In this document: positions 42,967 to 61,317 of the stretch, piece after piece
Layout of the letters: every line of letters begins with the position of its first letter
Position numbering within the stretch: position 1 is the first letter of the stretch
DNA from: a bacterium
GTDB lineage: Bacteria > Actinomycetota > Acidimicrobiia > Spongiisociales > ZC4RG35
Assembly: GCA_028823995.1 (NCBI GenBank)
Contig: JAPPFD010000031.1
Location: 123,877 to 187,876 of the forward strand
Direction of reading: 5' to 3'
Length of the DNA: 64,000 bases
The notes under the pieces: generated by a model
The model's database searches: none
What the model saw: only the letters and a program-made list of their open reading frames with translations
Told to the model about the DNA's origin: nothing
Translations under genes and position numbers: made by a program

Positions 42967-44586
42967 ATGAGGAGAGTTTTGAAACCTCGTAGCCGCGGAG
43001 CCCCAGGCGGGTGGCGGCTAGGTCTGCAGGTTGCGATCGTATTCTGTTTGGCAGCATCTCTGCTTGCCGGGTGCGCCGAAGATGAGCCGGAGGCCCCGGC
43101 TACGACAGCCGCGCCGGCTACCACAGCCGCGCCGGCCCCGGTCGACCCTGATGCAGAGAAGAGAGGCGGGACACTACAACTGGGTACGCCTCAGCCGATA
43201 CAAACACTTGACCCGCATCAGTTCGGCATTTACAACAACCGCAACGCTTGGCCGGGTCTATTCAGCGGGCTGACGCGTTACACCGAAGAACTCGAACCGG
43301 TCCCCGATCTGGCCGTGTCATGGGACGTGGACGATGCCGGGACGGCATGGACGTTCAACCTGCGAGAGGGTGTGCAGTTCCACAATGGTGAACCATTCAC
43401 GGCTGCGGACGTCAAATACTCCCTTGACAGATTGCTCCACCCCGACACGAACGCGGGCGTCTACGCCGAAGCGATATCTACGATCGAAGAAGTCGAAGTG
43501 GTTGACGATCAAACCGTGATCTTGCACCTCTCTGCGCCTTCCGCGATCCTGCTGGCAGGGTTGGCGAGAGCCATGATCATTCCCGAGGGTTCGGGAGATA
43601 CCATCGCTCAGGAAGGCATCGGAACCGGGCCCTTCGTAATGGTCGACTATGTCGCCGACGAGCGTCTGATCATGACCCGGAACGAGAACTACTGGGAAGA
43701 GGGATTGCCCTACCTTGACGGAGTCGAGGTGACCGTGCAGCCCGACACGACCACGCTGTTCACGGCCCTGAGCGCCGGCGACGTTGACATCTATTGGCAG
43801 CTCGAGCCGCGTTTCGTCCAGCAGATCGCCAAGGAAGGCGAGTTGCGGACACTCTTCGCCCCCAGTTCCTCGGTTGTCACGTATATGAGCATTTACAACG
43901 GCGCTCCGCCGTTTGACGATGTGCGTGCCCGCCAGGCGCTGCTTCACGCCTTGGATCTCGAGACCATCAACACCCTTGCGTTCTTCGACACGGGAATAGC
44001 GGTGCCGACTAACAACCTGCTTCCTCCGGGCCACTGGGCCGAGGCCCCCGGCCTTACCGAGTACCCGTATGATCTTGACCGCGCCAAGGCGCTGTTCGAA
44101 GAAGTAGGTGTTACCGAACTCAGCTATGTCGGACTCAACATCGTGCCGTGGACCCGGATCATCGGAGAGGTGATGGAACAGTCCTTCGGAAAGATCGGGA
44201 TCAAGTTGAACGTCTCGATGCCGGAACTCGGTGGGTGGGCTGAAGCCTTCACGCCGCACCCGGCGCCCGGCAGCATCGTGGCCAATGCCGCGCTTCCTGA
44301 CTACGATCCGGCCTTCCTGTGGAATCTCTCCCACCCCGACGTCAACCCGTGGGGGTTCGGGGACGAGTCCTACGCTCAGCTTCTTGCGGATGCTGCGGCC
44401 GAGTTGGATCTGGACAAGCGCATAGCAGCCTACGGCGAGGTGCAGAAGGTCTGGAACGCGGAAGTTCCAACTCCGATCCTGTACTTTGACCGCTGGTTCC
44501 ATGGTGTGCGAGACCGGGTCCAGGACTTGAAGCACCTCAACAGTGGTGACCTCGATTACAGGGAGACATGGCTCACCGATAAGTAA
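42967..44586 (+). CDS. Family-5 (DppA/OppA-type) ABC substrate-binding lipoprotein
   Basis: Lipobox 'LAGCAEDEP', Ala/Thr/Pro linker, 539 aa SBP_bac_5 profile. Confidence 0.85.
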   Translation: MRRVLKPRSRGAPGGWRLGLQVAIVFCLAASLLAGCAEDEPEAPATTAAPATTAAPAPVDPDAEKRGGTLQLGTPQPIQTLDPHQFGIYNNRNAWPGLFSGLTRYTEELEPVPDLAVSWDVDDAGTAWTFNLREGVQFHNGEPFTAADVKYSLDRLLHPDTNAGVYAEAISTIEEVEVVDDQTVILHLSAPSAILLAGLARAMIIPEGSGDTIAQEGIGTGPFVMVDYVADERLIMTRNENYWEEGLPYLDGVEVTVQPDTTTLFTALSAGDVDIYWQLEPRFVQQIAKEGELRTLFAPSSSVVTYMSIYNGAPPFDDVRARQALLHALDLETINTLAFFDTGIAVPTNNLLPPGHWAEAPGLTEYPYDLDRAKALFEEVGVTELSYVGLNIVPWTRIIGEVMEQSFGKIGIKLNVSMPELGGWAEAFTPHPAPGSIVANAALPDYDPAFLWNLSHPDVNPWGFGDESYAQLLADAAAELDLDKRIAAYGEVQKVWNAEVPTPILYFDRWFHGVRDRVQDLKHLNSGDLDYRETWLTDK

Positions 44587-44605
44587 GCGGTAGTCTGTCC
44601 AATCC

Positions 44606-46309
44606 GTGGAATCGTTCACGACCCCGCTTCCGATGGAAGACGGTATCCGGCTAGCAACCGATATCTTCCTTCCATCCGGAAGCGGGGGTCCCCACCCCGC
44701 GTTGCTGATGCGGACACCCTACGACAAGGCTCGGGTGGAGGATGGACGGATGATCTATACCGAGATCGTTGGAGAGGCGGTCAAGGCCGGCTATGCCGTG
44801 GCCATTCAGGATCTCCGTGGGCGTTTTGAATCCGAGGGGGAATTCGTGCCGTTTCACGAAAACCCCGTCAGCGACGCAAGGGACGGTGCAGCCACCGTGT
44901 CTTGGATCAGAGCTCAGGACTGGTGCGACGGCTCCGTTGCGATGTGGGGTGACTCCTACGGGGCTTGGACACAGTGGAAGGTAGCTATTGACGGGGACGT
45001 CAAACCCGACGCCATCTTTCCCTCCGGCCTTCCGATGAGCGCCCTCGATTCGCCCGTCCTGAGGCCTGCCAGGCGAATCCTCTGGTATGTCGGCCGCATG
45101 GGGCCCGACTCACGCCGGCGCTCGGACCGGAGCGAACACTCCCTCGACGCGGAGTCCGCTTACCGTAACTGGCGAACGGTGGAGAGAAGCCGTTGGCTGT
45201 GGTTTCTCCCCTGGAACGAAATGCCCGATTATCTGCTTGGCGGCCTCTCACCCCACTACCAAAGCCTGCTTCGAAGCAGGCCAAGCGACTATCTGTCGTG
45301 GATCAGACGTTGTGAGGAGTTTGAGGGACCTGTGTTGCTTCTGACCGGTTGGTTCGACATAGATGTGGGCAGCGTGATCGAACTCCATGGAAGGCTGAGC
45401 AACCGACCGGGCGAGTCCGGCCCTGCGTATCTGATCATCGGCCCTTGGAAGCACATGGACCCCAAATACGATCTGAGCCGACACCGGGGTGAGATCGACT
45501 TCGGCGAAGCTGCCCAATGGTCCTATCCGGATGTCTTGGTCCAATGGTCCGATTTTGTTCTGAAAGGCAAGCCCGGACCTCTGTTTCCCGGACCGCCGAT
45601 CCGGTATTTCGCGATGGGGGATGGGTCCAACCAGTGGCAGGAGGCCGACCGCTGGTCTGAGATCGTCGCACCTTCCCAGCGCCTCTATCTCACATCCACT
45701 GCCGCGTCGGGTGAGAGTGGCGGCGCCCTCTCGGAATCTCCTTCCACGGAGACCGCGACTTGGCGCTATGTGTACGATCCGCGAGACCCGGTTCCTTCGG
45801 CCGTGGACGAGGACGCGTACTATGGCCCCTTCGACATCGGCTACATGGACATGCGACCGGATGTCCTGTCCTTTGCCACCGCGCCGATTGACCAACCGCT
45901 CGACATCCGCGGATCGGTGGATGTTGACCTCGTGGTGGCCAGCAGCGCCGTCGACACCGACTTCTGTGCCTGGGTCGCCGAAGAACGCCCGGACGGCGCG
46001 TCGATTCTTATTGCCAGCGGGTTTGTCCGAGCCAGGTACCGGAACGGGATCGATCAGGAGACATTCTTAGAACCGGGAAGGCCCGAGACGATCCGGATCC
46101 GGTGTCGCCCGACCGTCTACCGCCTGGCCGCAGGGTCTCGCCTGGTGGTGAAGATTTCCAGCAGTGACTTCCCGGACTATGACCGGAGTCACAATCTCGG
46201 GACCGATCCCTACTCGGATGCCCGACTCGTATCGGCAGTGCAGACATTGACAAGTGGACCGGAGGAGCCGTGCAGCGTCTACCTGCCGGTATCGGGGCCT
46301 GTGAAATGA
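44606..46309 (+). CDS. CocE/NonD-family alpha/beta hydrolase (Xaa-Pro dipeptidyl-peptidase / alpha-amino-acid-ester hydrolase-like)
   Basis: 'DGIRLATDIFLPSG...PALLMRTPYDK' N-terminus, nucleophile 'GDSYGA', C-terminal jelly-roll domain, 567 aa. Confidence 0.85.
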   Translation: MESFTTPLPMEDGIRLATDIFLPSGSGGPHPALLMRTPYDKARVEDGRMIYTEIVGEAVKAGYAVAIQDLRGRFESEGEFVPFHENPVSDARDGAATVSWIRAQDWCDGSVAMWGDSYGAWTQWKVAIDGDVKPDAIFPSGLPMSALDSPVLRPARRILWYVGRMGPDSRRRSDRSEHSLDAESAYRNWRTVERSRWLWFLPWNEMPDYLLGGLSPHYQSLLRSRPSDYLSWIRRCEEFEGPVLLLTGWFDIDVGSVIELHGRLSNRPGESGPAYLIIGPWKHMDPKYDLSRHRGEIDFGEAAQWSYPDVLVQWSDFVLKGKPGPLFPGPPIRYFAMGDGSNQWQEADRWSEIVAPSQRLYLTSTAASGESGGALSESPSTETATWRYVYDPRDPVPSAVDEDAYYGPFDIGYMDMRPDVLSFATAPIDQPLDIRGSVDVDLVVASSAVDTDFCAWVAEERPDGASILIASGFVRARYRNGIDQETFLEPGRPETIRIRCRPTVYRLAAGSRLVVKISSSDFPDYDRSHNLGTDPYSDARLVSAVQTLTSGPEEPCSVYLPVSGPVK

Positions 46310-47379
46310 TGTCTTCCGGGCAGTCAAAGGGACGATCCGACCGGTTTATCGACTTGCGTAGCGACACCTACAACCTACCCACGCAGGCGATGTTGACGCG
46401 TCTTGGATCCGCCGTCGAAGGTCCACGTATTGGAGGGGCGGAACAGTACACCCGGGAACTGGAGCGGGCAGTATCCGCCCTGACCTCCAAGGAAGCCGCT
46501 GTGTTCCTTCCCACCTGCAGCGCCGCCAATCTCCTGGCGCTGATGGCGCTGGCCAACCCGGCCGAGAACGTTGTTGTTGACGCCGACTCGCACATACGGT
46601 GGCTGGAGGCGAACAGCGCCTCGGTCACAGGAGGGGTCCAGTTGGTCCCCGTGCCAAGAGCCGGCAGCGTCGTCGACCCGGTCGCCTTGGTCGATTTCGC
46701 GGAACGATCGTCCCACTTCGGGCTTCCGCCCCTGGGTTTGATCTGTGTTGAGAACTCTCACAACAACGCCGGGGGAACGGTGGCGACCCGGTCGGACATG
46801 AAACGGGTCTCCAGCATGGCGCGCAAATACGGCGCCCGCGTTCATATCGATGGGGCCCGCATCTTCAACGCTGCCGCTCGCCTCGACGCTGAGGTCAGCG
46901 AACTGTGTGCCCCGGCCACCACGGTGGCGTTGAGCCTCAACAAGAGTCTGGGAGCACCGTACGGCGCCGTTCTGGCGGGTCCTGGAGACGTCATTGCCAA
47001 AGCTAGGAACCTCCGGGGTCAACTGGGCATCGCGTCCATACACCAGGAGGGCCTATTCGCAACGATGGCGCTGGAGGCTCTTGAAACCAACATGGAGGAT
47101 CCACGCCTCGACAACCACGAGGCGGAAAAGTTGGCGCGATCTCTCACCCGGCACTTCGCGTCCGAGTTGGCGGTGCAAACTCCCCAGACCAACATCATTC
47201 TCTTTGACGTTTTGGCGGACCTGACCGCCGCCGAGTTCTGCAGGGAACTGGAGACCAGGGGAGTACTGGCAAAACCGCGGTCTGCCACCCGGTCGGTTCG
47301 TCTCGTCGTGAATCGTGGGTCGCGACAACACGATCTGGGACGTGTGACAGAAGCCTTCGCCAGTGTGCTAGGTCATTAA
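46306..47379 (+). CDS. Low-specificity threonine-aldolase-like PLP enzyme (fold type I)
   Basis: 'DLRSDTYNLPTQAM' N-terminus, PLP-Lys region 'SLNKSLGAPYG'. Start at ATG 46306 (ATGA overlap with CocE). Confidence 0.75.
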   Translation: MMSSGQSKGRSDRFIDLRSDTYNLPTQAMLTRLGSAVEGPRIGGAEQYTRELERAVSALTSKEAAVFLPTCSAANLLALMALANPAENVVVDADSHIRWLEANSASVTGGVQLVPVPRAGSVVDPVALVDFAERSSHFGLPPLGLICVENSHNNAGGTVATRSDMKRVSSMARKYGARVHIDGARIFNAAARLDAEVSELCAPATTVALSLNKSLGAPYGAVLAGPGDVIAKARNLRGQLGIASIHQEGLFATMALEALETNMEDPRLDNHEAEKLARSLTRHFASELAVQTPQTNIILFDVLADLTAAEFCRELETRGVLAKPRSATRSVRLVVNRGSRQHDLGRVTEAFASVLGH

Positions 47380-47390
47380 CAGGGAGGCTT

Positions 47391-48305
47391 ATGGGTTCCA
47401 TTGTGACAGTGACAGGTGAGGTGCCCAGCACGGACATCGGCGCAGTACTGATGCACGAGCACATCATGTGTGATCTCTACCGGATCTCTGGTTTCCCGGA
47501 CCATCAACTCAACGATGTCGATCTAGCTGTCAGTGAGCTTGGTCACCTGGATAAGACTCCGGTGCGGACGGTGGTCGATGTGACGAGTGTCGGACTGGGC
47601 AGAGATCTCCAGACTCTGCGACAAATCGCTATGGCCACGGGACTGAACATCGTTGCCGGATGTGGTTGGTACCGCGATCCTTACCTGCCACAGGACGTCT
47701 TCGATAAGACTTCCGACGAACTGGCCGACATCCTGGTCTCGGAGATAAACGGAGGGTCTGGCGACGGGTGGATTCGACCGGGGATCATTGGAGAAATAGG
47801 GGCGTACACGGATCCGATGTCTCCTGCGGAGGAGCGAGTCCTACGTGCAGGCGCGTTTGCACAAGTGGAGACGGGGGTCGCCTTGTATACGCACGCGGCC
47901 CGCAGCGCGGTTGGGATCGAGCAGGCCAGCATCCTGCTCGGAATGGGCGTTCCGCCCGAGCGGATAGTCATCGGCCACTCTGACACGTTCCCGCGGAAGG
48001 AGTACTGGTCGGAGTTGCTCGGCATGGGTGTCACCCTCGGATTCGACACTGTGAGGCCTCACTTTCCCTATGATGTCGAGGTCCGCATCGCCGGTCTGAT
48101 GTGGCTGGCGGAGCGAGGCTCCCTGGATCGTGTCGTGGTCTCCAACGACGTGTGCATTCGCTCACATCTCCGCGCGTACAACGGCGGGGGTTACCCGTAC
48201 TGCGCCACGGATTTCTTCGACTCTCTGCGAAGGGTCGGGTTCGGTGACCAGGAATTCCGCACGATCTTCCATGAGAACCCGGCCCGGCTTCTCGCTGTTC
48301 TGTAA
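47391..48305 (+). CDS. Phosphotriesterase-family (Php-like) amidohydrolase, paralogue 2
   Basis: About 70 % identical to paralogues 1 and 3, with the same ligand set HEH/YTHA/IGHSD/SND and Glu in place of Lys. Confidence 0.85.
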   Translation: MGSIVTVTGEVPSTDIGAVLMHEHIMCDLYRISGFPDHQLNDVDLAVSELGHLDKTPVRTVVDVTSVGLGRDLQTLRQIAMATGLNIVAGCGWYRDPYLPQDVFDKTSDELADILVSEINGGSGDGWIRPGIIGEIGAYTDPMSPAEERVLRAGAFAQVETGVALYTHAARSAVGIEQASILLGMGVPPERIVIGHSDTFPRKEYWSELLGMGVTLGFDTVRPHFPYDVEVRIAGLMWLAERGSLDRVVVSNDVCIRSHLRAYNGGGYPYCATDFFDSLRRVGFGDQEFRTIFHENPARLLAVL

Positions 48306-48308
48306 GCC

Positions 48309-50252
48309 ATGACCGGGGCAGAGCAAGGATCCCAAGACGGCGGCCGCCCGCCGACGCTGGAGATCAGCGATTTGACTTTGTCTCTCGAGGGAGTCGGCGC
48401 CGATCCCGTGGACTTGGTCAAGGGCGTCAGCCTGGAAATCTCCCAGGGCCAGTGCCTCGGGTTGGTCGGAGAGTCCGGGGCGGGGAAGAGCCTGACAGCC
48501 AAGGCCATTGTGGGACTCCTGCCCAGGGGGATCAGCGTCTCGCGCGGTTCGATCAGGGTCGGCGGGCAGCCTCTGACGTCCTCGCAAGTCAACTGGCGGG
48601 AAATCCGGGGCGTACTGGTCGGGACCATTTTCCAGGACCCCATGTCCAGCCTCAACCCGGTCATGAGAATACGGACCCAGGTGGAGGAGGTGATCAAGGC
48701 ACATTTGACCCTCAACAGGCATGAACGGGACCAACGAGTGGTCGAGTTGATGGAAGCCGTGGACCTTCCCGGTCACAAGGGCTTCCTGTCCCGCTACCCG
48801 CATGAGCTGTCGGGCGGCCAGCAGCAGAGGGTGGCGATCGCCATGGCCATTGCCTGCGATCCGTTGCTATTGATCGCCGATGAAGCGACAACCGCCCTGG
48901 ATGTCCGCACCCAGGCCCAAATCCTGAGGCTGCTCAGGTCCCTCGTGGATGACTTGGGACTAAGCATGCTGCTGGTTACTCACGACATGGGGGTCATCGC
49001 CGGCGTTTCGGATCGACTGGCGGTGCTCTACTCAGGACGTGTCGTCGAAAGGGGCAGGACTCCCGACGTCCTGTCCAATCCTCACCATCCCTACACGAGT
49101 GGCCTCATCGAAAGTTGCCCTCTCGATCTCAAGGGCGGGTTCCGGACCGAGGTCCGGCCCATCATGGGGACGGCGCCGATCGACGCGGAGTCGATCTGGG
49201 ACAAATGCGTCTATGCGCCCCGCTGCTCCCGAGCCGAGAGCAAGTGTCGAAGTCACTCTCCGCCAATGGAGGATTACGGAGAGTTGCATGGCGCCGCATG
49301 CTTCTATCCGTTGGGGGATGTACCAGGAGACGAATCACCCGCGACATCGGGTGAGGTGGATACAGGCCCCCTGACGTCATCCGGACCGGCCCTTCTCACC
49401 ACGGCGGCACGCGGACCGGGGTCGCCGCCGCAGAATGGAAAAGGAGCAGAAGGCACCAACGATGTAATCGTGCAAGCGACCGGACTAACCGTCTCCTACA
49501 GGGAAGGGCGCACATTCTCCTACAGCCGGAAGGCTGTCCCGGCCGTTCAGGAGTTCGACCTTGAATTGAGGAAGGCTGAGACCGTGGCGGTGGTGGGAGA
49601 GTCGGGAAGCGGTAAATCAACCGTCGCCCGCGCCCTGATACGGCTGGAGCCAAACAACGCGGTGGTGGAGGGGCGACGCCAAATCCTCGGCGCCGACCTG
49701 GATGAACTGGGTAGGGGCGCCCTGCGGGGCATGCGCCGGAGGGCACAGATAATCTTTCAGGATCCCTACGGAAGCCTCAACCCGCGGCGCAGGGTTGTCG
49801 ACCTCCTGATGGAAGGCCCTCGCGCGCACGACCTTGAGTCCTCCGATCCGCCCTTGGATCGAGCCGGACAGTTACTGGAACGCGTCGGTTTGGATCCGTC
49901 CTTCGCCGACCGGTATCCACACCAGATGTCGGGCGGTCAACGCCAGAGGGTGGCGATCGCCCGGGCGCTTTCCCTGGAGCCCCAGGTCCTGATTTGCGAC
50001 GAACCGGTTTCGGCGCTGGATGTCAGCATCCAGGCCCAGATACTGGAACTCCTGGCGTCACTGGCCCGCCAGGAGGGACTGGCGTTCGTTTTCATAACTC
50101 ATGACTTGGGAGTGATGAACATGCTCGCCGACAGGGTCATCGTGATGAAAGAAGGAAAAACCGTCGAGACCGGCATGGTCGAGGAGGTACTCGCTCGGCC
50201 GAACACCCGATACACCAGAGAACTCATCCAAGCCAGTCTGGTTGCGATATGA
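48309..50252 (+). CDS. Fused tandem ABC ATPase (DppD-DppF-like), two nucleotide-binding domains
   Basis: Two Walker A motifs ('GESGAGKS', 'GESGSGKS'), two signatures ('LSGGQQQRV', 'MSGGQRQRV'), 647 aa. Confidence 0.9.
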   Translation: MTGAEQGSQDGGRPPTLEISDLTLSLEGVGADPVDLVKGVSLEISQGQCLGLVGESGAGKSLTAKAIVGLLPRGISVSRGSIRVGGQPLTSSQVNWREIRGVLVGTIFQDPMSSLNPVMRIRTQVEEVIKAHLTLNRHERDQRVVELMEAVDLPGHKGFLSRYPHELSGGQQQRVAIAMAIACDPLLLIADEATTALDVRTQAQILRLLRSLVDDLGLSMLLVTHDMGVIAGVSDRLAVLYSGRVVERGRTPDVLSNPHHPYTSGLIESCPLDLKGGFRTEVRPIMGTAPIDAESIWDKCVYAPRCSRAESKCRSHSPPMEDYGELHGAACFYPLGDVPGDESPATSGEVDTGPLTSSGPALLTTAARGPGSPPQNGKGAEGTNDVIVQATGLTVSYREGRTFSYSRKAVPAVQEFDLELRKAETVAVVGESGSGKSTVARALIRLEPNNAVVEGRRQILGADLDELGRGALRGMRRRAQIIFQDPYGSLNPRRRVVDLLMEGPRAHDLESSDPPLDRAGQLLERVGLDPSFADRYPHQMSGGQRQRVAIARALSLEPQVLICDEPVSALDVSIQAQILELLASLARQEGLAFVFITHDLGVMNMLADRVIVMKEGKTVETGMVEEVLARPNTRYTRELIQASLVAI

Positions 50253-50950
50253 ATCGTCCTTCGACACAGCTTCCCCAATCCAACGATCCCATGTACCGGA
50301 CGCTGGAAGACTTTGCATACAACACCATCCGTGAAGCGATCCTGCATGGGGAACTGAAACCCGGGGAGAGGATTCTGCTCAAGGACCTGGAGGCCACGTA
50401 CCGAATCAGCCGCACCCCGATCCGCCAAGCTCTGAGGCGACTGTCCGAGCGTGGATACGTCACTCTGCAACCGCATTCCTCCATGCGGGTGCGGCCCCTG
50501 AGCCCGGAGGAACTGAACGAGCTTTACGCCCTACGCCGGGCGATCGAACCGATAGCAATCGCGGAGGGTATCAAGAGAGCTGACGACTCCGTCATGGCCT
50601 TCCTGGATTCCCTCCTCGGGGAAATGCATGCTGCCACGGAAAGGGAGGACCGCGTGAGTCTCATCGGGCTCAACAGCAAGTTCCACAGGTCGATGTATGA
50701 GCCCTCCGGAATGCCTCACCTGCTTTCCATGTATGACAGGCTGGTGGGCATCTGCGAGCGTTATCAGTGGACCCAAGCGAACGCGCCCGTCACCGAACTC
50801 AGAGGCGACCGCCGGCATCACGAAGAGATCATGGACGCCTATCGCCGCAGGGACGAGGGTCGGGCCATCGACCTGATTCAAATCCACCTGGAGCAGGCCC
50901 GCGAGGCCATCCTGAGACATCTGAGTTCCCGGGGAGCCCTGGCGCCATGA
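50249..50950 (+). CDS. GntR-family (FadR/FCD subfamily) transcriptional regulator
   Basis: Winged HTH 'ILLKDLEATYRISRTPIRQALRRLSERGYV' plus an FCD effector domain. Confidence 0.85.
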   Translation: MNRPSTQLPQSNDPMYRTLEDFAYNTIREAILHGELKPGERILLKDLEATYRISRTPIRQALRRLSERGYVTLQPHSSMRVRPLSPEELNELYALRRAIEPIAIAEGIKRADDSVMAFLDSLLGEMHAATEREDRVSLIGLNSKFHRSMYEPSGMPHLLSMYDRLVGICERYQWTQANAPVTELRGDRRHHEEIMDAYRRRDEGRAIDLIQIHLEQAREAILRHLSSRGALAP

Positions 50951-52344
50951 CGGAGAGGAGCTGTCGGGAGTTCGACGCCGCCAATCGCCACCTGAACGCC
51001 TTCGTAGCGGTGCGTCACACCTCCGAAGGCCGCCAGGACTCGACAGGCCCCGCCCCGGCCGGCGATTCGGAGATCCGCCGCTCGTGGGGAGACGATCGAG
51101 GGAGGACGCTGGCTGTGAAGGACAACATAGCCGTGGAGGGATTCCCGTTGGCCGCGGGTCTCGGCGTTCCGGTGCTTTCCCAGGACGAAACGGTCTCCGC
51201 CGCGTGGGTCGAGTGGCTGGTTGGCCGGGGGTTTGTGATCTTGGGCAAGGCCAATATGTATGAACTCGGTTACGGCGCCCCAGGCTGCGGGTTGCCTCCG
51301 GCGGTGAATCCGTGGGACCACTCCCTGATTCCCGGTGGAAGCTCGAGCGGCTCAGCCGTGGCCGTGGCGGCGGCGCTGTGCGCGGCGGCTCTGGGCACGG
51401 ATGCAGCCGGATCCGTCCGGATCCCAGCGGAGTATTGCGGGGTTCTCTCCTACAAGCCGTCCGGGAAACAGGCTTGGCACAAAGACGGCATCTGGCCCGG
51501 ACCTTCCACTCTCGATGCCATCGGAATAATGACGCGAGACCTGGACCTTCTGGCCCAGGCCATCCCGTCCCAAAGCGGCCGCGGCGAAGGAGACGACAGC
51601 CACGGTACCCGTGCACCTTCGGACTCCGGGCGGGACACCCTTTGCATCGGGATCCTGGATCTCGACGGTGAAGATGTGGACGACGATCATGCTCTGATAC
51701 TGGAGGAGGTACGAGCCTGGGCGGAAGATCGCGGCTTTGCCACATTGAGCGTGCAACTGCCAGGTCTGGGGAGCCGCGTCCGGGATGCGATCTGGAAGAT
51801 ATTTGCCTACGAGTACTCCCGCGCTCTCGAGTTGCATCTCACCGAAGAGGCCAGGGCGGTGCTGTCCGCCCCTTCCCGCCAGTTGCTTGCCGACGGTCCC
51901 AGGACCACCGCCGAGGAGTATTCGGGAGCGTTGGACGCCCGGCTCCGGCTGCAGCGCCGATACGCCGAGGAACTGAGCGACTGTCATGCGGTCGTGACCC
52001 CCGTCACTCCGGTACGGCCCTATTCCCTGACCTGGTCTCGCGCCTTTGCTCAATGCGAGGAGGACGAGGTCTCCGGGAGTCCGATCGATCTGTCAAACGT
52101 CGAAGCCTTACTGACCAGGAAGACCCGGTACACCGCGCCGATCAACCTGGTCGAGTACCCGACGCTGACCCTTCCCATGCGCCTTCATAGGGATGGCCTA
52201 CCGGTGGGAATCCAGATTGCCTCGGTTCCTGAACACGAGCCTGAGATGTGGGGCATCGCCCAAAGGATGTGGCAGGACCTCGGTCCGCAAGCACAACGCA
52301 AGGATGGGCGAGCCAGGTTGTACGGCAGCTTTGCGGATATGTAG
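50947..52344 (+). CDS. Amidase-signature (AS) family amidase
   Basis: 'GGSSSGSAVAVAA' AS motif with the catalytic Ser, Lys in 'LAVKDNI'. Start at ATG 50947 (ATGA overlap with the GntR gene), and the track's 50767 start is an extension. Confidence 0.85.
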   Translation: MTERSCREFDAANRHLNAFVAVRHTSEGRQDSTGPAPAGDSEIRRSWGDDRGRTLAVKDNIAVEGFPLAAGLGVPVLSQDETVSAAWVEWLVGRGFVILGKANMYELGYGAPGCGLPPAVNPWDHSLIPGGSSSGSAVAVAAALCAAALGTDAAGSVRIPAEYCGVLSYKPSGKQAWHKDGIWPGPSTLDAIGIMTRDLDLLAQAIPSQSGRGEGDDSHGTRAPSDSGRDTLCIGILDLDGEDVDDDHALILEEVRAWAEDRGFATLSVQLPGLGSRVRDAIWKIFAYEYSRALELHLTEEARAVLSAPSRQLLADGPRTTAEEYSGALDARLRLQRRYAEELSDCHAVVTPVTPVRPYSLTWSRAFAQCEEDEVSGSPIDLSNVEALLTRKTRYTAPINLVEYPTLTLPMRLHRDGLPVGIQIASVPEHEPEMWGIAQRMWQDLGPQAQRKDGRARLYGSFADM

Positions 52345-54188: not shown

Positions 54189-55214
54189 TCAAACTGCAGC
54201 CGCCATCTCCTGCAGGGTCCTGTGGAAGGCGCTCGGCACCAGGATCCCGTTGCTGATGGATTCCCGGCGGGCCGCGTAGCGCCGTTCGGAAGGTAAGCGG
54301 GTTCCTTCCTGGGCGAGCACCCGGCCAAAGAGCTTCTCAGAGTGGCTGAGCGGACTCTGTGTATCCGCGTGGAAGTGTGTCGGGTCGATCGCAATGATCA
54401 GCTCTCCTCCCAATGGCGGCATGTCTTCGCGGGGATCGGTCTCTGTTGCCTCGAAGCTGAATGGGGCGCCGATCAACGCCCCGGCAAGCAGTTCGACCAT
54501 CAGGGCGAGGGCAGCGCCCTTGTAGCCGCCGAACGGCAACTGAGAGCCCTTCAGGCCTTCCTCAGGGTCGGAAGTCGGGTTGCCGTCCGCGTCGATGGCC
54601 CATCCCGGGGGTATGGGTTTCCCGTCTCGGTGATGGAGCAGGAGGTCTCCCCGGGAACTCGCGCTGGAAGCCTGATCGAATACCAAGGGTGGAGCGCCGT
54701 CGCGGGGCCAACCGAAGGCCATCGGGTTGGTGCCGTACACCCGCTGGGTTCCTCCGGCCGGAGCCACGAAGGCCATGTACTGGGTGAAGGCGAATGAGAC
54801 AAGGCCTTGCTCTGCCAACCACTCCACCTCGGGCCAGAGCGCTGCTACGTGATAACAATTCACAATGGAGACCGCAGCGATCCCATTTGCCTTTGCCTTT
54901 TGGACAAGCCGTTCGATGCCTACCTGGATCGCCAGGGGGGCATAACCCCGGTTGGCGTCGACTCTCGCCAAACCCGGAGAGATGTCTCGAGTCTTGGGAA
55001 CCGCCGTTCCATTCACTTTGCCGTCTTCGAGACCCTTCACATAGAAGGGCACCCGGAACAGACCATGAGCTTTACAATCGTCGCGCTCCGCCGCGGTGAT
55101 GGTTCGAGCCACGGCGTCGGCGTTCTCCGCAGATGCTCCATTCACCACCAGAGCAGCTCTTGCGAGTTGATGGACTTCTTCGAGAGATACTCTTACTAGG
55201 TCATTCTCAGGCAT
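54189..55214 (-). CDS. Ldh_2-family (malate/L-lactate dehydrogenase type 2) NAD(P)H oxidoreductase
   Basis: 341 aa, 'ITAAERDDCKAHGLFRVPFYV' catalytic His region typical of COG2055 (pyrroline/piperideine-2-carboxylate reductase, sulfolactate dehydrogenase). Confidence 0.8.
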   Translation of the reverse strand: MPENDLVRVSLEEVHQLARAALVVNGASAENADAVARTITAAERDDCKAHGLFRVPFYVKGLEDGKVNGTAVPKTRDISPGLARVDANRGYAPLAIQVGIERLVQKAKANGIAAVSIVNCYHVAALWPEVEWLAEQGLVSFAFTQYMAFVAPAGGTQRVYGTNPMAFGWPRDGAPPLVFDQASSASSRGDLLLHHRDGKPIPPGWAIDADGNPTSDPEEGLKGSQLPFGGYKGAALALMVELLAGALIGAPFSFEATETDPREDMPPLGGELIIAIDPTHFHADTQSPLSHSEKLFGRVLAQEGTRLPSERRYAARRESISNGILVPSAFHRTLQEMAAAV

Positions 55215-55404: not shown

Positions 55405-56319
55405 ATGGGTTCCATCATGACCGTGACCGGTGAAGTGCCGGCTGCCGAAGTCGGCGCCGTCCTCATGCATGAGCACATCATGTGTGATCTGTACCGCGTG
55501 AGCCTCAACTCGGATCACCTGCTCGATGACGTCGACCTTGCCACCAGAGAGATTCGCCATCTGCAGGCCACTCCGGTGCGAACAGTGGTTGACGTGACCA
55601 GCGTGGGTCTGGGGAGGGATCTTGAAACGCTGCGGAACATCGCTTTGCAGACCAATATCAACATTGTCGGTGGATCAGGGTGGTACCGCGACCCCTTCTT
55701 CCCGCAGGAGGTCCTTGACAAGACCTCGGACGGGCTGGCGGAGGTGCTGATCTCCGAGATTGAAGACGGGCTCCAGGGCAGTGGAATACGACCGGGGATC
55801 ATCGGGGAGATCGGAGCTCTCCGGAGGCCGATGTCTCCGGCGGAAGAACGGGTGCTGCGCGCCGGGGGATTCGCCCAACTAGAAACGGGAGTCTCGATAT
55901 ACACGCATGCCGCCCGGAGCACGGTCGGGATAGACCAGGCCAGGATCCTGGTCAGGATGGGTGTTCCGGCCGACCGGATAGTCATCGGCCACTCCGATAC
56001 GGTGCCCCGGAAGGAGTATTGGGCGGAACTGCTGGACATGGGTGTCACGCTCGGGTTCGACACCGTGAGACCGCACTTCCCTTATGACCTGGAGGTTCGC
56101 GTGGCGGCCTTGGAGTGGCTGGCTGAACGCGGTGCCTTGGACCGGGTCGTCATCTCCAACGACGTGTGCTTCCGATCCCATCTGCGCGCCTTCGACGGCG
56201 GTGGTTACCCATTCTGCGCCACCGACTTCTTCGACTCCCTGCGACAAGTCGGGTTCGGAGACCAGGAGTTTCAGACGATATTCTGTGACAACCCGGTCCG
56301 GCTTTTGGAGCGGTCCTAA
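55405..56319 (+). CDS. Phosphotriesterase-family (Php-like) amidohydrolase, paralogue 3
   Basis: Same signatures as paralogues 1 and 2. Confidence 0.85.
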   Translation: MGSIMTVTGEVPAAEVGAVLMHEHIMCDLYRVSLNSDHLLDDVDLATREIRHLQATPVRTVVDVTSVGLGRDLETLRNIALQTNINIVGGSGWYRDPFFPQEVLDKTSDGLAEVLISEIEDGLQGSGIRPGIIGEIGALRRPMSPAEERVLRAGGFAQLETGVSIYTHAARSTVGIDQARILVRMGVPADRIVIGHSDTVPRKEYWAELLDMGVTLGFDTVRPHFPYDLEVRVAALEWLAERGALDRVVISNDVCFRSHLRAFDGGGYPFCATDFFDSLRQVGFGDQEFQTIFCDNPVRLLERS

Positions 56320-56492: not shown

Positions 56493-58184
56493 TCACAGCG
56501 GCGGAAGCATCATGAGAGCACCGCCGTGGCCGTCGACAGCCGCTATCAGTTCCTTTTCCCCCTCTGATCGGTGGCGGCCCGAGGAGATCCTTTGGCCGAT
56601 ATCGACTCCGCAAAGAGCCGGAACGCCGAGCCATCCGGCCACTTCGAAGAGGTGCGCGGCGGGGCTTCCTTCCTCGGTGACGAGGCCGGCCGCATTCCAG
56701 AGCAGCGGAGCAATGTTGCCGACAGGGTGGGATGCGACGATGACTTCCCGAGGACAGAATCGGGCGGCATCCTCCGCGTTGCGAATGTACCGGAGCCGCC
56801 CGACGCCCCAGCCCCCGGCAGCGGGGATCCCGGCGAAGGTTTCACCCTGGGAAGTGATCACTCCATACGTCCACGCATCCCAGTTCGTGGTTCCCACCCG
56901 GCGAATGGGACCTTGTTGGCCGGAGGGTGCCGGGTCCAAGTTGTCCGGGTCAAGATACCAGATCCAGCCGGGGCGGGGGATCACACCGGAAGCGGTGAGG
57001 GCTCGCCCCAACTCCTCAAGGTTGCGCAGTTGTCCGTGAGCGAGAGACCTGTCAACCTCCGGATGCCGGGAGATAAGGTCCAACAGCGGAGACGACTCAC
57101 CGTTGCGCAACGCCGCCAGGGCTCGATCGATGTCGGTGGGAGTAACAGGTTCTCCCCAACGTTGTGACATCAACACTGCTGACCCTTTCTGAAGATCCTC
57201 GATGAGGGTCGCCACCGGCCTGGGGGCCTGTTCTATCGCAGCGGGGGAGAGGTCTTCGAGACCGATGGCCCACGGCCAGACATGTCGCTCGCCCACAGGA
57301 CCCGGGTACCGAATCATCATGCGAACCACACCTCTCATCCATGGTTCCCGGTTTTGGGCCGGGTCAGGCGCCCGGGTTTCGGTCCTTTGCAATCGCCAAT
57401 CCAGCTTCGGTTGAGCTTGCACCAGATGGAGCTTTCCATTCTGGTCGGCCATCCACTCGATGTGATTGCACTCGATCTTCTCAGCGGTGGCTCTGCTCAG
57501 AACGGCGATCCGGCGGAGTAGGCGGGAACCTAGGGGTGAAGAATCCGCCTGGACTTCGTCGTCCCGGGTGACGACGGCAATGTGGCCTCTTTCCCAGCCC
57601 CCCACCAACCCGGCGGGATGTCCCGGCGTGCCAATCACCTTTACAGCCCCGTTCTCTTCTACGGTGGCAACTCCACCGTAGGTTGGTCGGATCTCGGGTT
57701 GGACGAGCACAGCCATGCCCACCTCTTGTGGAGATGTCCCCGTCACTACTCCTCTCTTCAGAGTGTTCGGGTTGAAGACCGAGGCCCAGCAGCCGATCAC
57801 GCACTGGGTGAGTTCTTCGGGCTTCATCCCCAGATAAGAGGAGAAGGCTCCGGCCCAGATGCTCTCTCCTTCCGCCCTACTCGATGAACGCACCACCAAG
57901 GAATCTCCAAGATTCCGTGCTTCCTCTGCGAGGTCCTGGAGTAGAGCGGGAGGCGGGTGATTGTAGACGGCCGTCCTGGCTGCGCCCGAGTTATCGGTTG
58001 ATCGGAGCGTGGCTTCTCCGGCTCCGATGACCGGATCGGAGACACCCACCGAGACTACGAACCCGTCGAGAACCGGCAGACCCCGGGCTCTGGCTCTTGC
58101 CAGCCGGCTGGCTTTTGCTCCCACCAGGGCGGGATTCTGTGCGTCGGCCTGGTCGAGCCAGACCAGACGGGCCCCTCCGGCCAT
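56493..58184 (-). CDS. PEP-synthase/PPDK-like phosphotransferase: N-terminal PPDK_N ATP-grasp domain plus C-terminal phospho-histidine swivel domain, no PEP-binding TIM barrel
   Basis: 'LVGAKASRLARARARGLPVLDGFVV' (PPDK_N). C-terminal 'GLVTEEGSPAAHLFEVAGWLGVPALCG' aligns with the mobile-domain consensus 'GGxTSHAAIVARELGIPAVVG' and conserves the His. Confidence 0.75.
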   Translation of the reverse strand: MAGGARLVWLDQADAQNPALVGAKASRLARARARGLPVLDGFVVSVGVSDPVIGAGEATLRSTDNSGAARTAVYNHPPPALLQDLAEEARNLGDSLVVRSSSRAEGESIWAGAFSSYLGMKPEELTQCVIGCWASVFNPNTLKRGVVTGTSPQEVGMAVLVQPEIRPTYGGVATVEENGAVKVIGTPGHPAGLVGGWERGHIAVVTRDDEVQADSSPLGSRLLRRIAVLSRATAEKIECNHIEWMADQNGKLHLVQAQPKLDWRLQRTETRAPDPAQNREPWMRGVVRMMIRYPGPVGERHVWPWAIGLEDLSPAAIEQAPRPVATLIEDLQKGSAVLMSQRWGEPVTPTDIDRALAALRNGESSPLLDLISRHPEVDRSLAHGQLRNLEELGRALTASGVIPRPGWIWYLDPDNLDPAPSGQQGPIRRVGTTNWDAWTYGVITSQGETFAGIPAAGGWGVGRLRYIRNAEDAARFCPREVIVASHPVGNIAPLLWNAAGLVTEEGSPAAHLFEVAGWLGVPALCGVDIGQRISSGRHRSEGEKELIAAVDGHGGALMMLPPL

Positions 58185-58185
58185 G

Positions 58186-59454
58186 TCAGTCCACGACGAT
58201 TATCTCGTGAGACTTGTAGGACGAGACCATCTCGATCCCGGTGTCGGTGACATACAGCATCTCCTCGAGACGCACCCCGAAGCGGTGGAGTTTTCCGTGC
58301 TGGGTCTCCAGGGCGAAGGTCATCCCGGGCTCGATCTCCACGGGGTGGTCCAGGGACCAGATGCGCGAGATCACCGGCGGGTCGTACTGGGCCAGGCCCA
58401 GGCCGTGACCCCAGAGGTTGGCCGCCGCCTGGTCCTCCTCGGCGTATCCCCACACCTCCTGGGCGCTCGGCCACTTGGAGGCGACGTCGGCGGTGGTGAC
58501 TCCCGGCCGGGTGGCCTCGATGGAGTCCCAGAGCCAGGTGTGAGCCTCGTCGTAGACGCTCTGCATCTCGTCGGTGGGCTTCCCGCCCACGCAGTAGGTG
58601 CGGTACACGCAACTCTTGAACCCGTTCCAGGTGAGGGCGGCCAGGTCGACGATCACCAACTCCCCGGGGCGGATCATCCGGTCGGAGAAGTTGCGCCAGT
58701 TGGGCCAGGCGTTGGGACCCGATGACACGATCACGTCCTCGACGTCCTCCATGCCGGGAATCGAATAGAGTTTCTCGAACCCGAAGGCCGCCACCTGGTT
58801 CTCGGTCATCCCCGGCTTGATGAAGTTGGTGATCTCGTAGTGGACGTAGTCGCAAATCGACCCCACCATCGAGAAGGCCTTGACCTCGTCGGGGCTCTTG
58901 ATGGCCCGGGCCTCCATCATGGGAGTCATGCCGTCGGTCCACTCGATCCCGTGCTGCTGGAATGCGCCGATCAGGTTGATGTCGATGAAGTCGACGCCCA
59001 GCGGTTTGTCCTTCACTCCGGCTGCCTCCAGGTCGCTGATCAGGGCCTTGGTGAACTTGTTCACCTGCTGCGTGGAGGCCGGACCCACCGCTCCCTTTAT
59101 CCAGGCGTACGAGTACCGGATGTTCTCCTTGGGGATCCACGGGTTGTGGACTTTCAGGTGGAACCCCAGGTCGCCCTGCTCATAGACGATCGGCGGCTGG
59201 TCCTCGATCAGCACCACGTAGCGGAGCCCGGGCTTGAGACGGTTCCAACCCGGGGTCATGGTGGAGGAGACGTACCGCATGTTCTCGTCGTAGAAGAGCA
59301 ACAGGGCGCCCAGACCGTAGCGTTTCATCGCCTCGTGGGCTCTCTTCAACCGCCACTTCCGGACAGCGTCCCAGTTGATTCCCTCTTTCCAGTCCGTGCT
59401 CAAGACCCCGAATGCTTCCCTCATGTTCTTCCTTGCTCGATTGGGGGAAATCAT
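58186..59454 (-). CDS. M24-family metallohydrolase (creatinase/prolidase-like), copy 2
   Basis: Paralogue of 38895-40166, with the same metal ligand set ('HGLGLAQYD', 'ALETQHG', 'RLEEM'). Confidence 0.8.
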   Translation of the reverse strand: MISPNRARKNMREAFGVLSTDWKEGINWDAVRKWRLKRAHEAMKRYGLGALLLFYDENMRYVSSTMTPGWNRLKPGLRYVVLIEDQPPIVYEQGDLGFHLKVHNPWIPKENIRYSYAWIKGAVGPASTQQVNKFTKALISDLEAAGVKDKPLGVDFIDINLIGAFQQHGIEWTDGMTPMMEARAIKSPDEVKAFSMVGSICDYVHYEITNFIKPGMTENQVAAFGFEKLYSIPGMEDVEDVIVSSGPNAWPNWRNFSDRMIRPGELVIVDLAALTWNGFKSCVYRTYCVGGKPTDEMQSVYDEAHTWLWDSIEATRPGVTTADVASKWPSAQEVWGYAEEDQAAANLWGHGLGLAQYDPPVISRIWSLDHPVEIEPGMTFALETQHGKLHRFGVRLEEMLYVTDTGIEMVSSYKSHEIIVVD

Positions 59455-59492
59455 ACCGCCGCGCCCTCCCGGGAGAGTTGAGGAGGGCTTGC

Positions 59493-60548
59493 TCAGGGAG
59501 TCAGAAGGACCTTGAGGTGGTCGCCGCTCCTGGCGGCGGCGAAGGCCGCGCCCGCCTCCTCCAAGGGGTAGCGACCGGTGACCAGGGGCGCCAGGCGGAT
59601 CCGGCCCTCGGCGGCAAGACGGATACCTTCGTCATAGTCCCGAGGCAGAGCGGCTCTCGGGTTGTGAAGGGTGAGTTCTTTGAAGTAAAGCTGGTAGTAG
59701 GGCATTTCGGTTCCCCCGCCGGTCACGGTGCCGTAGATGATCACGTCGCCTCCCGGCATTGCGAGGTCGATCGATTGGACGACCGTCTCCTCTTTCCCCA
59801 CCGACTCGATCACCAGGTCGGCGCCCCGCCCGGATGAGGCTCGGGCGACCACGTCGGATGCTTCGTCGGGGGTGGCGACCAGGTCGGCGCCCAGGCCCTT
59901 CGCCAACTCCAGCTTCCACGGGGAACGGCTGACGCCTATCACGAGGCCCGCGCCACGATCGGAAAGCAATTGGGTATGGAGCATGCCGGAGACGCCCAAG
60001 CCGATCACCACGGCCACCGTGTCGGAGGAAACCGGCACCGGCTGCTGGGAGTGGACCACGGTTCCCAGGACCTGCAGGAGCCCGGCCTCGTCCGGCGGGA
60101 TCTGATCGGGGACCGGATGCAGGTAGCGATCCTCCAGCCCGATGGCCTCGGCGAACACCCCGTCGAAGTCCCGCCCCAGAAGGCCCCCGCGCCCGCAAAG
60201 ATGGGGCCTGTCCCTACCGCACAGATAACAGTCGCCGCAGTTGATCCCCGGATTGACGAGCACCCTCGTTCCGTGAGAAACCTTGGCCTCCGGCGGGGCC
60301 TGCGCCACGGTGCCCACCAATTCGTGGCCGAGCACCCGTGGGTAACTGACCGGTGTGGAGCCGTCCAGAATCTTGAGGTCCGTGCCGCATATCCCGGCCC
60401 GCTCCAGACGGACCAGGACCCCCCTGTCCACCCGGGGAAGCGGCCTGTCCACCATCTCGAGCCAACCCGGTCCCGTGGTCGCAGCAGCTCTCACGCCTTG
60501 TCCTGCCACTTGAACTTCGAAATAGGACCTCCAAGGGTCACACGGCAT
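59493..60548 (-). CDS. Zn-dependent medium-chain alcohol/polyol dehydrogenase (threonine/sorbitol dehydrogenase-like)
   Basis: 'GICGTDLKILDG' catalytic Zn, structural-Zn Cys cluster 'CGDCYLCGRDRPHLC', Rossmann 'GLGVSG'. Confidence 0.85.
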   Translation of the reverse strand: MPCDPWRSYFEVQVAGQGVRAAATTGPGWLEMVDRPLPRVDRGVLVRLERAGICGTDLKILDGSTPVSYPRVLGHELVGTVAQAPPEAKVSHGTRVLVNPGINCGDCYLCGRDRPHLCGRGGLLGRDFDGVFAEAIGLEDRYLHPVPDQIPPDEAGLLQVLGTVVHSQQPVPVSSDTVAVVIGLGVSGMLHTQLLSDRGAGLVIGVSRSPWKLELAKGLGADLVATPDEASDVVARASSGRGADLVIESVGKEETVVQSIDLAMPGGDVIIYGTVTGGGTEMPYYQLYFKELTLHNPRAALPRDYDEGIRLAAEGRIRLAPLVTGRYPLEEAGAAFAAARSGDHLKVLLTP

Positions 60549-60816: not shown

Positions 60817-61317
60817 TCAAAGGAAAAGATCTCCCAATAGAAGGAACATACCGGTCACTTCAATCATAAGGGCTGCAAGGCCCCAAGAGAAGGTCATTAG
60901 CTTTCTCTTGAGAACCTTCCGGTTGGTGTCCGCCTGGTCACCCATCCAGATTGCAAGCTCGCGATGCACTTCTGAGATGCTTCTCGGCGGAGTCCCCTCA
61001 ATGTAATAGCCGATTATGACGCGCGGATCATGCACAAGGCGTAGGCTGGCCGGTTCCCAGATGAACAGGGTGGTAAAGACCACGCCGAGGAACCCCACGA
61101 TTGCCAGGCCCCCTCCGACAAATCCGAGCCCATCGATGTTGCTGATCTCGTCACGGTAGTTCTGAAGGGCGACAAGAAAGAGGCTTGCTGCAAATGTAGC
61201 CGCCGTCAGGAGCTTCCCGGCTCGATCGCGAGTGTCCTGTATCGTGGCCATCTGCTGGTCTAGCGTTCGCAGCCCGGTCTCGTAGGAGAGGGCATAAGCG
61301 GCAGGGTCCCCGTCCAC
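60817..61317 (-). CDS. Hypothetical 166-aa membrane protein (soluble N-terminal helix plus 3 predicted TM helices) in a low-GC patch
   Basis: ORF with TM-like hydrophobic stretches, GC ~52-55 % against ~68 % in the flanks. I do not recognise the family. Confidence 0.4.
   Translation of the reverse strand: MDGDPAAYALSYETGLRTLDQQMATIQDTRDRAGKLLTAATFAASLFLVALQNYRDEISNIDGLGFVGGGLAIVGFLGVVFTTLFIWEPASLRLVHDPRVIIGYYIEGTPPRSISEVHRELAIWMGDQADTNRKVLKRKLMTFSWGLAALMIEVTGMFLLLGDLFL

Follow-up and report, generated by a model that had tools for sequence, protein, structure and literature searches.

The question raised by this locus is what a phosphotransferase of the phosphoenolpyruvate (PEP) synthase type might act upon when it has no PEP-binding barrel and its gene lies directly behind that of an M24-fold protein. 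The locus lies in a 64,000-nucleotide (nt) stretch of an acidimicrobiial genome (assembly GCA_028823995.1, contig JAPPFD010000031.1, positions 123,877 to 187,876), hereafter the window, and consists of three genes on the minus strand. These encode a Zn-dependent medium-chain dehydrogenase (Zn-ADH; 59493-60548; 351 amino acids (aa), or ~333-351 depending on the start), a pita-bread or M24-fold protein (58186-59454; 422 aa from the listed start) and a 563-aa truncated dikinase resembling PEP synthase and rifamycin phosphotransferase (RPH), here called KIN (56493-58184). The assignments were made with Pfam and NCBIfam, complemented by PDB alignments and homologues for the M24 protein, and by the open reading frame (ORF), an AlphaFold2 (AF2) model and Foldseek for KIN. 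A first-pass annotation had given these ORFs, their strand and the 1 nt separating M24 from KIN exactly as we found them. It had proposed an ATP-dependent phosphorylation, for example of a hydroxylated xenobiotic or antibiotic, coupled to amide hydrolysis and alcohol oxidation, an interpretation that holds only in part. The evidence presented here points instead to a widespread and uncharacterised M24-dikinase gene pair, not to an antibiotic kinase.

Domain structure of KIN

We collected 258 KIN homologues and scored conservation in an alignment of 96 of them; residue numbers are those of the 563-aa protein, and run 1 lower in alignments A1 and A2, which omit the start codon. Pfam matched PPDK_N to residues 20-174 (E 1.9e-15) and PEP-utilizers (PF00391) to residues 478-531 (E 4e-6), no PEP-utilizers_C/TIM-barrel (PF02896) match was obtained in the same database, and the chain stops 52 residues past the conserved histidine. 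Together with PDB profile searches, this confirms the layout first suggested, an ATP-grasp domain plus a C-terminal phospho-histidine swivel domain and no PEP barrel. Pfam covers just 155 residues of the ATP-grasp domain, which the 96-homologue profile compared with the PDB showed to be complete (residues ~5-262) and to include the HIEW...LVQAQP Mg/nucleotide strand; on the basis of these profile alignments and of invariant columns, we assigned residues 1-263 to it (57396-58184, minus strand). The swivel domain was set at residues 448-563 (56496-56843, minus strand) from PF00391 and from alignment to the swivel domains of PEP synthase and RPH, the PDB profile search placing it at ~447-557. Matches of the family profile to PEP synthase structures were strong (9dae, E 1.6e-35; 8a8e, E 5e-35).

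Residues K24, R99, S116 and E243 align with Lys22, Arg117, Thr136 and Glu297 of RPH-Lm, which position the ATP phosphates and Mg (PMC4844700), and these four plus Q256 are invariant or nearly so. The conserved histidine noted earlier is H511 (codon 56654-56652), located in GSPAAH (family motif GSP(A/G)AHLFE); it is invariant in 96/96 homologues and aligns with the phospho-carrier histidine of PEP synthase and RPH. The AF2 model of KIN was confident (pLDDT 90.3, pTM 0.87), and its best Foldseek matches in the PDB were RPH (5hv3, E 7e-21, the best whole-chain match, made through the two end domains only), the RPH ATP-binding domain, HpeI (9goj), PEP synthase and PPDK, so that KIN can be placed with confidence in the swivelling-histidine dikinase superfamily. 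Judged from the alignments and the model, KIN is a catalytically complete ATP-grasp plus swivel protein with H511 as its invariant phospho-carrier, and from its homology a reaction through a phospho-histidine intermediate to AMP and Pi is to be expected. The NCBIfam PEP_synth model gave only 56.7 bits (cut-off 739). An ordinary PEP synthase fragment or pseudogene was also considered and ruled out, as ~560 aa are kept in >100 homologues with invariant catalytic residues and the AF2 model is confident. The family is large and diverse, with >150 clusters (50% identity) at E <1e-114.

Between the two end domains lies a family-specific, all-helical region of 184 aa (residues 264-447; 56844-57395, minus strand), delimited by its lack of a PDB sequence match and by a domain model. 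It had been described as an unrecognisable middle of ~170 aa; this size was too small, and the absence of a known fold holds. No significant PDB sequence match was found for residues 264-447, even with the family profile, and a domain-only model (pLDDT 85.9) gave a best Foldseek PDB match of E 0.89 and TM 0.20. A hidden PEP barrel or rifamycin (RIF)-binding domain in the centre was ruled out by the all-helical structure, the PDB profile search and the Foldseek search with the domain-only model; thus the centre is not the complete PEP-binding domain that would have made KIN an ordinary PEP synthase fragment.

Neither is this region a constant part of the family. Across the 71 loci with a complete gene, KIN varies from 361 to 672 aa in a continuous range and its central region from absent to ~300 aa. 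It is deleted outright in ~420-440-aa orthologues (P0063, P0069, P0075 and others; alignment A3), likewise missing from the 418-aa KIN of a second Phytohabitans-like assembly (L004, GCA_054778935.1), absent in the 361-465-aa orthologues and missing or vestigial in ~19/71 overall. These short proteins consist of ATP-grasp and swivel domains alone and are still encoded directly behind M24 (L004, L019, L020, L035, L037, L059 and L092). The centre is also the least conserved part of KIN, with 40% identity between the window and the related locus L008, against 76% for the first 140 residues. The long forms, on the other hand, have an additional domain that is well folded and contains conserved motifs (R-x-PGP-x-GE, W305 and R428). 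Since the region is absent in orthologues that remain paired with M24, it is not an essential substrate-binding domain of a conserved function, and the earlier suggestion that it defines specificity does not hold; as far as the alignments tell, it is dispensable for whatever function the family conserves. A sub-threshold Pfam match to DUF7158 (21.4 bits, cut-off 27) falls within the region at residues 344-368 (~57081-57155 of the window).

Linkage and co-inheritance of M24 and KIN

To examine the gene pair across genomes, we used a scan with one genome per species that returned at least 575 stretches with M24 relatives, distributed over Actinomycetota and a few other phyla, and kept the best 80 loci. 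In the 69 M24-centred loci with enough downstream sequence, M24 was followed by KIN on the same strand with a gap of ~0-120 nt in ~67 cases. Three look-ups made from the M24 side, one in Phytohabitans suffuscus, one in Salinactinospora qingdaonensis and one on a 4.7-Mb contig of a metagenome-assembled genome (MAG), all had KIN directly downstream. Searches from the KIN side, with homologues at 57, 50, 39, 36 and 33% identity plus P0075 and P0112, one of them from a Dehalococcoidia MAG, found an M24 gene of 411-423 aa directly upstream on the same strand in 7/8; the exception was L091, where KIN has fragmented tRNA-synthetase ORFs as neighbours and the contig derives from long reads at low coverage. 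The link to M24 noticed in the window is thus real and very strongly conserved. Within the window, a single nucleotide lies between the M24 stop and the KIN start (TGA C ATG), a spacing that suggests translational coupling. One 863-aa open frame, at L067, was considered as an M24-KIN fusion and rejected because it lies in a different reading frame from M24.

The distance matrices of M24 and KIN were correlated (r = 0.72, 2485 pairs), which indicates that the two genes are broadly co-inherited. Their rates of change are very different: across Acidimicrobiia, Actinomycetes and Nitriliruptoria, M24 keeps an identity of 75-100%, while at the same loci KIN shows 31-68% and ADH 47-88%, and where M24 differs by <2%, KIN differs by 21% on average. 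The comparison of the window with L008 (JAPPFC010000036.1) illustrates this. The two genomes are near-identical, with 89-93% DNA identity on both sides of the locus, and protein identity is 100% for M24, 99% for Ldh_2, 97% for the phosphotriesterase-family (PTE) protein and 84% for ADH, against 55% for KIN; DNA similarity between window positions 56493-60548 and L008 8918-13032 collapses ~420 nt into the KIN gene. The allele closest to the KIN of the window is of the L012 type (68%), from a more distant genome, unlike the neighbouring genes. This mosaic relationship between KIN and its neighbours indicates allele replacement by recombination within the operon.

The M24 partner protein

The M24 protein matches Pfam Peptidase_M24 (E 1e-33). 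Its metal-ligand positions are D270, C282 (codon 58611-58609), H350, E383 and E397, so that, compared with M. tuberculosis PepE and with DddP, four of the five ligands are kept and the second Asp is replaced by Cys282. This Cys occupies the second-Asp position in every kinase-linked copy, and the site therefore reads D-C-H-E-E instead of the D-D-H-E-E of M24B Xaa-Pro peptidases. In these peptidases, the two His flanking the metal His are substrate histidines. The window protein has N-L-W-G-H ... Y-D where PepE has H-R-T-G-H ... H-E, with Asn and Tyr in place of the flanking His. The sole full-length similarity to a characterised family was to the lyase DddP (NF043017, 107 bits, cut-off 600, residues 27-415; PDB 4s00, E 3e-24). 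In view of the altered metal site, the missing flanking His and the similarity to DddP only, "M24 hydrolase" has to be taken as a fold assignment and not as a function, and the amide hydrolysis formerly attributed to this protein is unsupported. Translation probably begins at the second ATG (59424), which would give 412 aa, as in all homologues.

A paralogue of this gene lies elsewhere in the window (38895-40166, plus strand; 423 aa), with a gene for a 2-oxoacid dehydrogenase E2 (37712-38857) upstream of it. It is 33% identical to the kinase-linked copy, has the same D-C-H-E-E residues and no adjoining kinase. Cys282 was considered as a kinase-specific signature and discarded, as the paralogous M24 subgroup without kinase also has D-C-H-E-E. 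The GC content at third codon positions is 0.90 in M24, compared with 0.66-0.81 in neighbouring genes (0.68 in KIN); this could be due to strong codon bias (high expression) or to a foreign origin.

Gene neighbourhoods

The Zn-ADH gene is separated from M24 by 38 nt, and neither promoter-like nor minus-strand terminator-like sites were found inside the three-gene block. Its start is probably at ~60494, as homologues align from residue 27. The protein has the Pfam domains ADH_N and ADH_zinc_N and scored 154 bits with the L-threonine 3-dehydrogenase model (TIGR00692, tdh; cut-off 458); being below the cut-off, it is not a threonine dehydrogenase orthologue, and we regard it as a generic Zn-dependent medium-chain dehydrogenase/reductase. 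The association of Zn-ADH with the pair stands for the window, where the gene is upstream and co-oriented; elsewhere it is clade-specific, with an orthologue within 10 kb in 34-37/80 loci and an immediately upstream position mainly in sponge-symbiont Acidimicrobiia, the group to which the closest relatives of the window belong (RHO bins, Candidatus Spongiisocius and Candidatus Poriferisocius).

An unbiased clustering of neighbours over ~80 loci yielded Amidohydro_2 (36 loci) and Zn-ADH (34 loci) as the most frequent, followed by an isopropylmalate/homocitrate-synthase-like HMGL protein encoded immediately upstream on the same strand (28 loci), a GntR/FCD regulator (27) and, immediately downstream of KIN, an L-threonate/tartronate-semialdehyde-reductase-like HIBADH (24). 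Less frequent were SDR (23), Ldh_2 (18), D-2-hydroxyacid dehydrogenase (17), GFO/IDH/MocA (16), S15 hydrolase (12), Amidohydro_1 (11) and MoCo hydroxylase (10). These contexts, in which a cyclase was also present, are heterogeneous and indicate no single substrate. Judged by their gene content, the loci are catabolic operons for small hydroxy- or oxo-acids or for ring-cleavage or N-heterocycle products, and not resistance or biosynthetic clusters.

The block in the window belongs to a larger catabolic island, in which genes for an amidase and a peptide-type ABC transporter occur together with those for an S15 hydrolase, a threonine-aldolase-like lyase and three paralogues of the PTE family. 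Upstream lies a segment for catabolism or peptide uptake (42967-52344), which encodes permeases, a fused double ABC ATPase and an SBP_bac_5 binding protein, as well as an S15 (CocE/NonD) hydrolase, a beta-eliminating lyase of the threonine-aldolase-like kind, a PTE and an amidase. S15 hydrolases recur as direct neighbours of M24-KIN in other Actinomycetes (the 12 loci mentioned above). The three PTE paralogues (PF02126, PHP/lactonase-like), all on the plus strand and within 15 kb (41890-42813, 47391-48305 and 55405-56319), each have a full-length Pfam match of 210-227 bits, and a PTE gene accompanies KIN also in the unrelated locus L091. The PTE gene at 55405-56319 and the Ldh_2 gene at 54189-55214 were considered as members of the module and discarded, as they are adjacent only in the closest relatives. 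A gene at 60817-61317 (minus strand), situated between the ADH operon and divergent EamA/MFS transporter genes, encodes a predicted membrane protein of 166 aa without significant family (weak LPG_synthase_TM, E 0.008).

Discussion

We propose, tentatively and as something slightly short of an even chance, that KIN and M24 form a two-component, AMP-forming dikinase whose acceptor site is on the M24 partner. By analogy with the chemistry of PEP synthase, PPDK and RPH, the beta-phosphate of ATP would be transferred to H511 of KIN, and AMP and Pi would be set free. As a conserved acceptor-binding domain is missing from KIN itself, delivery to a substrate held on the translationally coupled M24 protein suggests itself: going by the anatomy of the two proteins, the swivel domain would hand the phosphoryl group to a substrate in the M24 metal site (D270/C282/H350/E383/E397), and M24 would correspond in its role to the TIM barrel of PEP synthase or the RIF-binding domain of RPH. 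The phosphorylated compound might itself be the product, or phosphorylation might activate the substrate for an elimination or hydrolysis catalysed by M24. The neighbourhoods suggest a small hydroxy- or oxo-acid-like or N-heterocycle-derived catabolite, which would be supplied or consumed by the variable dehydrogenases encoded nearby (Zn-ADH here; HIBADH-like, 2-hydroxyacid dehydrogenase, Ldh_2, SDR or GFO elsewhere) and by the isopropylmalate-synthase-like enzyme. This two-component interpretation is supported by the catalytic residues of KIN, its lack of an acceptor domain, the gene pairing and co-inheritance, the constraint on M24, the departure of the M24 site from that of a canonical peptidase, the precedents of split enzymes and that of VadK, in which an ATP-grasp plus swivel protein operates through partners. 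Its wider form, in which an M24 protein of the pita-bread fold, its metal centre containing a Cys, is the phospho-acceptor or substrate module of a PEP-synthase-type dikinase and brings about the ATP-driven activation of a common small catabolite, is possible but doubtful; such activation may consist of enol or hydroxyl phosphorylation, or of phosphorylation-assisted elimination or hydrolysis.

Several observations weigh against a two-component dikinase. M24 occurs without KIN at L023 (10001-12198; HMGL-M24-HIBADH) and L081 (10001-11969; M24-GntR), and KIN occurs without an adjacent M24 at L091 (5001-6620), so that neither protein depends absolutely on an adjacent partner. No natural M24-KIN fusion was found among the best 150 family representatives (342-631 aa) of 24,890 profile hits, and the D-C-H-E-E site is also present in the M24 subgroup with no kinase nearby. 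Moreover, KIN evolves 4-10x faster than M24, and this, with the replacement of its alleles, is as compatible with an accessory or regulatory function as with a catalytic subunit.

KIN and M24 might instead be two separate, consecutive enzymes, an explanation that we regard as rather unlikely. KIN would then be a self-contained dikinase like RPH or HpeHI that binds its acceptor in the helical centre or at domain interfaces, and M24 would independently cleave or hydrolyse the phosphorylated product or make the substrate of the kinase, which is approximately what the first-pass annotation had in mind once the antibiotic is left out. That RPH is the best whole-chain structural match, that the long forms of KIN have a well-folded extra domain with conserved motifs, that the pair is not absolutely obligatory and has yielded no fusions, and that small-molecule dikinases commonly open catabolic pathways all agree with it. 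It leaves the M24-paired orthologues with a missing or vestigial centre (~19/71) without a candidate acceptor domain, however, and the central region is both unlike a RIF-binding domain and the least conserved part of KIN, which would be odd for a site binding the same substrate as an ultra-conserved partner. KIN might also be a protein kinase that regulates or activates M24 or another enzyme of the pathway, the chemistry of which would be carried out by M24 alone; we consider this unlikely, and we are equally sceptical of the corresponding mechanism, autophosphorylation on H511 followed by phosphate transfer to, or another modulation of, the partner protein. The model for such a role is VadK, which autophosphorylates, interacts with pathway enzymes and has the same minimal architecture; the fast evolution, variable length, occasional loss (L023 and L081) and allele swapping of KIN, next to a far more constrained M24, are also what this explanation predicts. 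However, KIN does not belong to the VadK/PPDK lineage (PRK05878 model, 14.5 bits, cut-off 456), PEP synthase and RPH being closer, tight coupling in ~97% of the loci is more to be expected of subunits than of regulators, and the M24 sequence does not single out any residue as phospho-acceptor.

The proposal that KIN inactivates rifamycin-type antibiotics, or is another resistance kinase, seems to us highly improbable. It draws on the shared layout of ATP-grasp and C-terminal swivel domain and on RPH being the top structural match, and only this part of the RPH-type architecture first ascribed to KIN stands. KIN lacks the domain that binds RIF and carries the Arg666/Glu667/Lys670 network, it scored 43.8 bits with the rifamycin phosphotransferase model of NCBIfam (NF041857, RIF_Ptrans_rph; cut-off 999), and the conserved context consists of catabolic operons with GntR regulators and not of resistance or biosynthetic clusters. 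No evidence was obtained for the phosphorylation of an antibiotic or xenobiotic. The probability that these four interpretations leave over belongs to others not listed here.

Returning to the two-component dikinase, what would be novel is a swivelling-histidine dikinase with a new kind of partner and a missing acceptor domain. To our knowledge, the second active sites of the swivelling-histidine dikinases are a TIM barrel (PEP synthase, PPDK and PTS enzyme I), a RIF-binding-type domain (RPH, HpeHI, PpsAB and CreHI) or glucan-binding modules. A dikinase with none of the three and locked to an M24 partner would add a new combination of modules and, if our proposal is true, a new assembly of the swivelling-histidine machine in which an unrelated metalloenzyme fold supplies the second active site. 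A first clue to function would be gained, too, for a widespread, unannotated pair that now bears the labels "PEP-utilizing enzyme" and "Xaa-Pro peptidase" and that present annotation would miscount as gluconeogenesis and proteolysis genes in the genomes of sponge symbionts and soil actinobacteria. The extreme conservation of M24 (75-100% across classes) beside a kinase that evolves fast is already unusual. Experiments on the pair are feasible, as it comprises two soluble proteins and has cultured hosts (Phytohabitans suffuscus and Salinactinospora qingdaonensis).

Comparison with known systems

KIN shares with PEP synthase and PPDK the homologous ATP-grasp and swivel domains and the phospho-histidine motif G-x-x-x-H. 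It differs from them in having no C-terminal TIM barrel, in the position of the swivel domain, which is C-terminal rather than central, and in the Arg of the "QxRP" motif, which is Gln in the KIN family (LVQAQP). A truncated PPDK is known in M. tuberculosis: VadK (Rv1127c) consists of ATP-binding and phospho-histidine domains without a PEP/pyruvate domain, phosphorylates itself on His and cooperates with partner enzymes from a single pathway, having a regulatory role and no known small-molecule acceptor (PMC13400623). The short KIN orthologues share this minimal two-domain architecture, but VadK is PPDK-derived and has no M24 link, whereas KIN is closer to PEP synthase and RPH.

The resemblance to RPH (RPH-Lm; PDB 5hv1/5hv3/5fbs; PMC4844700) lies in the ATP-grasp domain followed by a C-terminal swivel domain with the catalytic His ~50 residues from the end, a position of the swivel His within a C-terminal motif that has been described for RPH (PMC12167813). 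By analogy, the AMP- and Pi-forming mechanism of RPH would be expected for KIN too. The RIF-binding domain of RPH has ~430 aa, organised in arm 1, arm 2 and apex subdomains, and contains the Arg666/Glu667/Lys670 network (PMC4844700); in contrast, the all-helical 184-aa centre of KIN (0 to ~300 aa in the family) has no detectable similarity to it. KIN is, in addition, 300 aa shorter than RPH, paired with M24 and found in a catabolic context. MarK is an unrelated kinase of the UPF0261 family.

On the M24 side, the likeness to DddP, the lyase of dimethylsulfoniopropionate (DMSP), and to the Xaa-Pro peptidases comprises the pita-bread fold, the N-terminal creatinase/prolidase-type domain and four of the five metal ligands, DddP being collinear over the full length. 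The similarity to DddP is nevertheless under the cut-off, C282 replaces an Asp ligand of the D-D-H-E-E iron site, and the M24 partner is kinase-linked and extremely conserved; from the Xaa-Pro peptidases (PepE/prolidase), it differs by the Asn and Tyr that stand for the flanking His. An M24, creatinase or Xaa-Pro partner of any dikinase was not described in the literature searched.

The closest precedents for a split enzyme are HpeHI, PpsAB and CreHI, which are two-component small-molecule dikinases (PMC12167813). As in the present pair, PEP-synthase-type machinery is distributed over two polypeptides, the genes of which adjoin each other in catabolic clusters. The division is different, since in those enzymes an ATP-grasp polypeptide is combined with one carrying a RIF-binding-like acceptor domain plus the swivel domain, whereas KIN has ATP-grasp and swivel domains on one chain and its adjacent gene encodes an M24-fold and not a RIF-binding-like protein. 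If our proposal is correct, the split would thus run between an ATP-grasp plus swivel polypeptide on one side and an M24-fold protein on the other.

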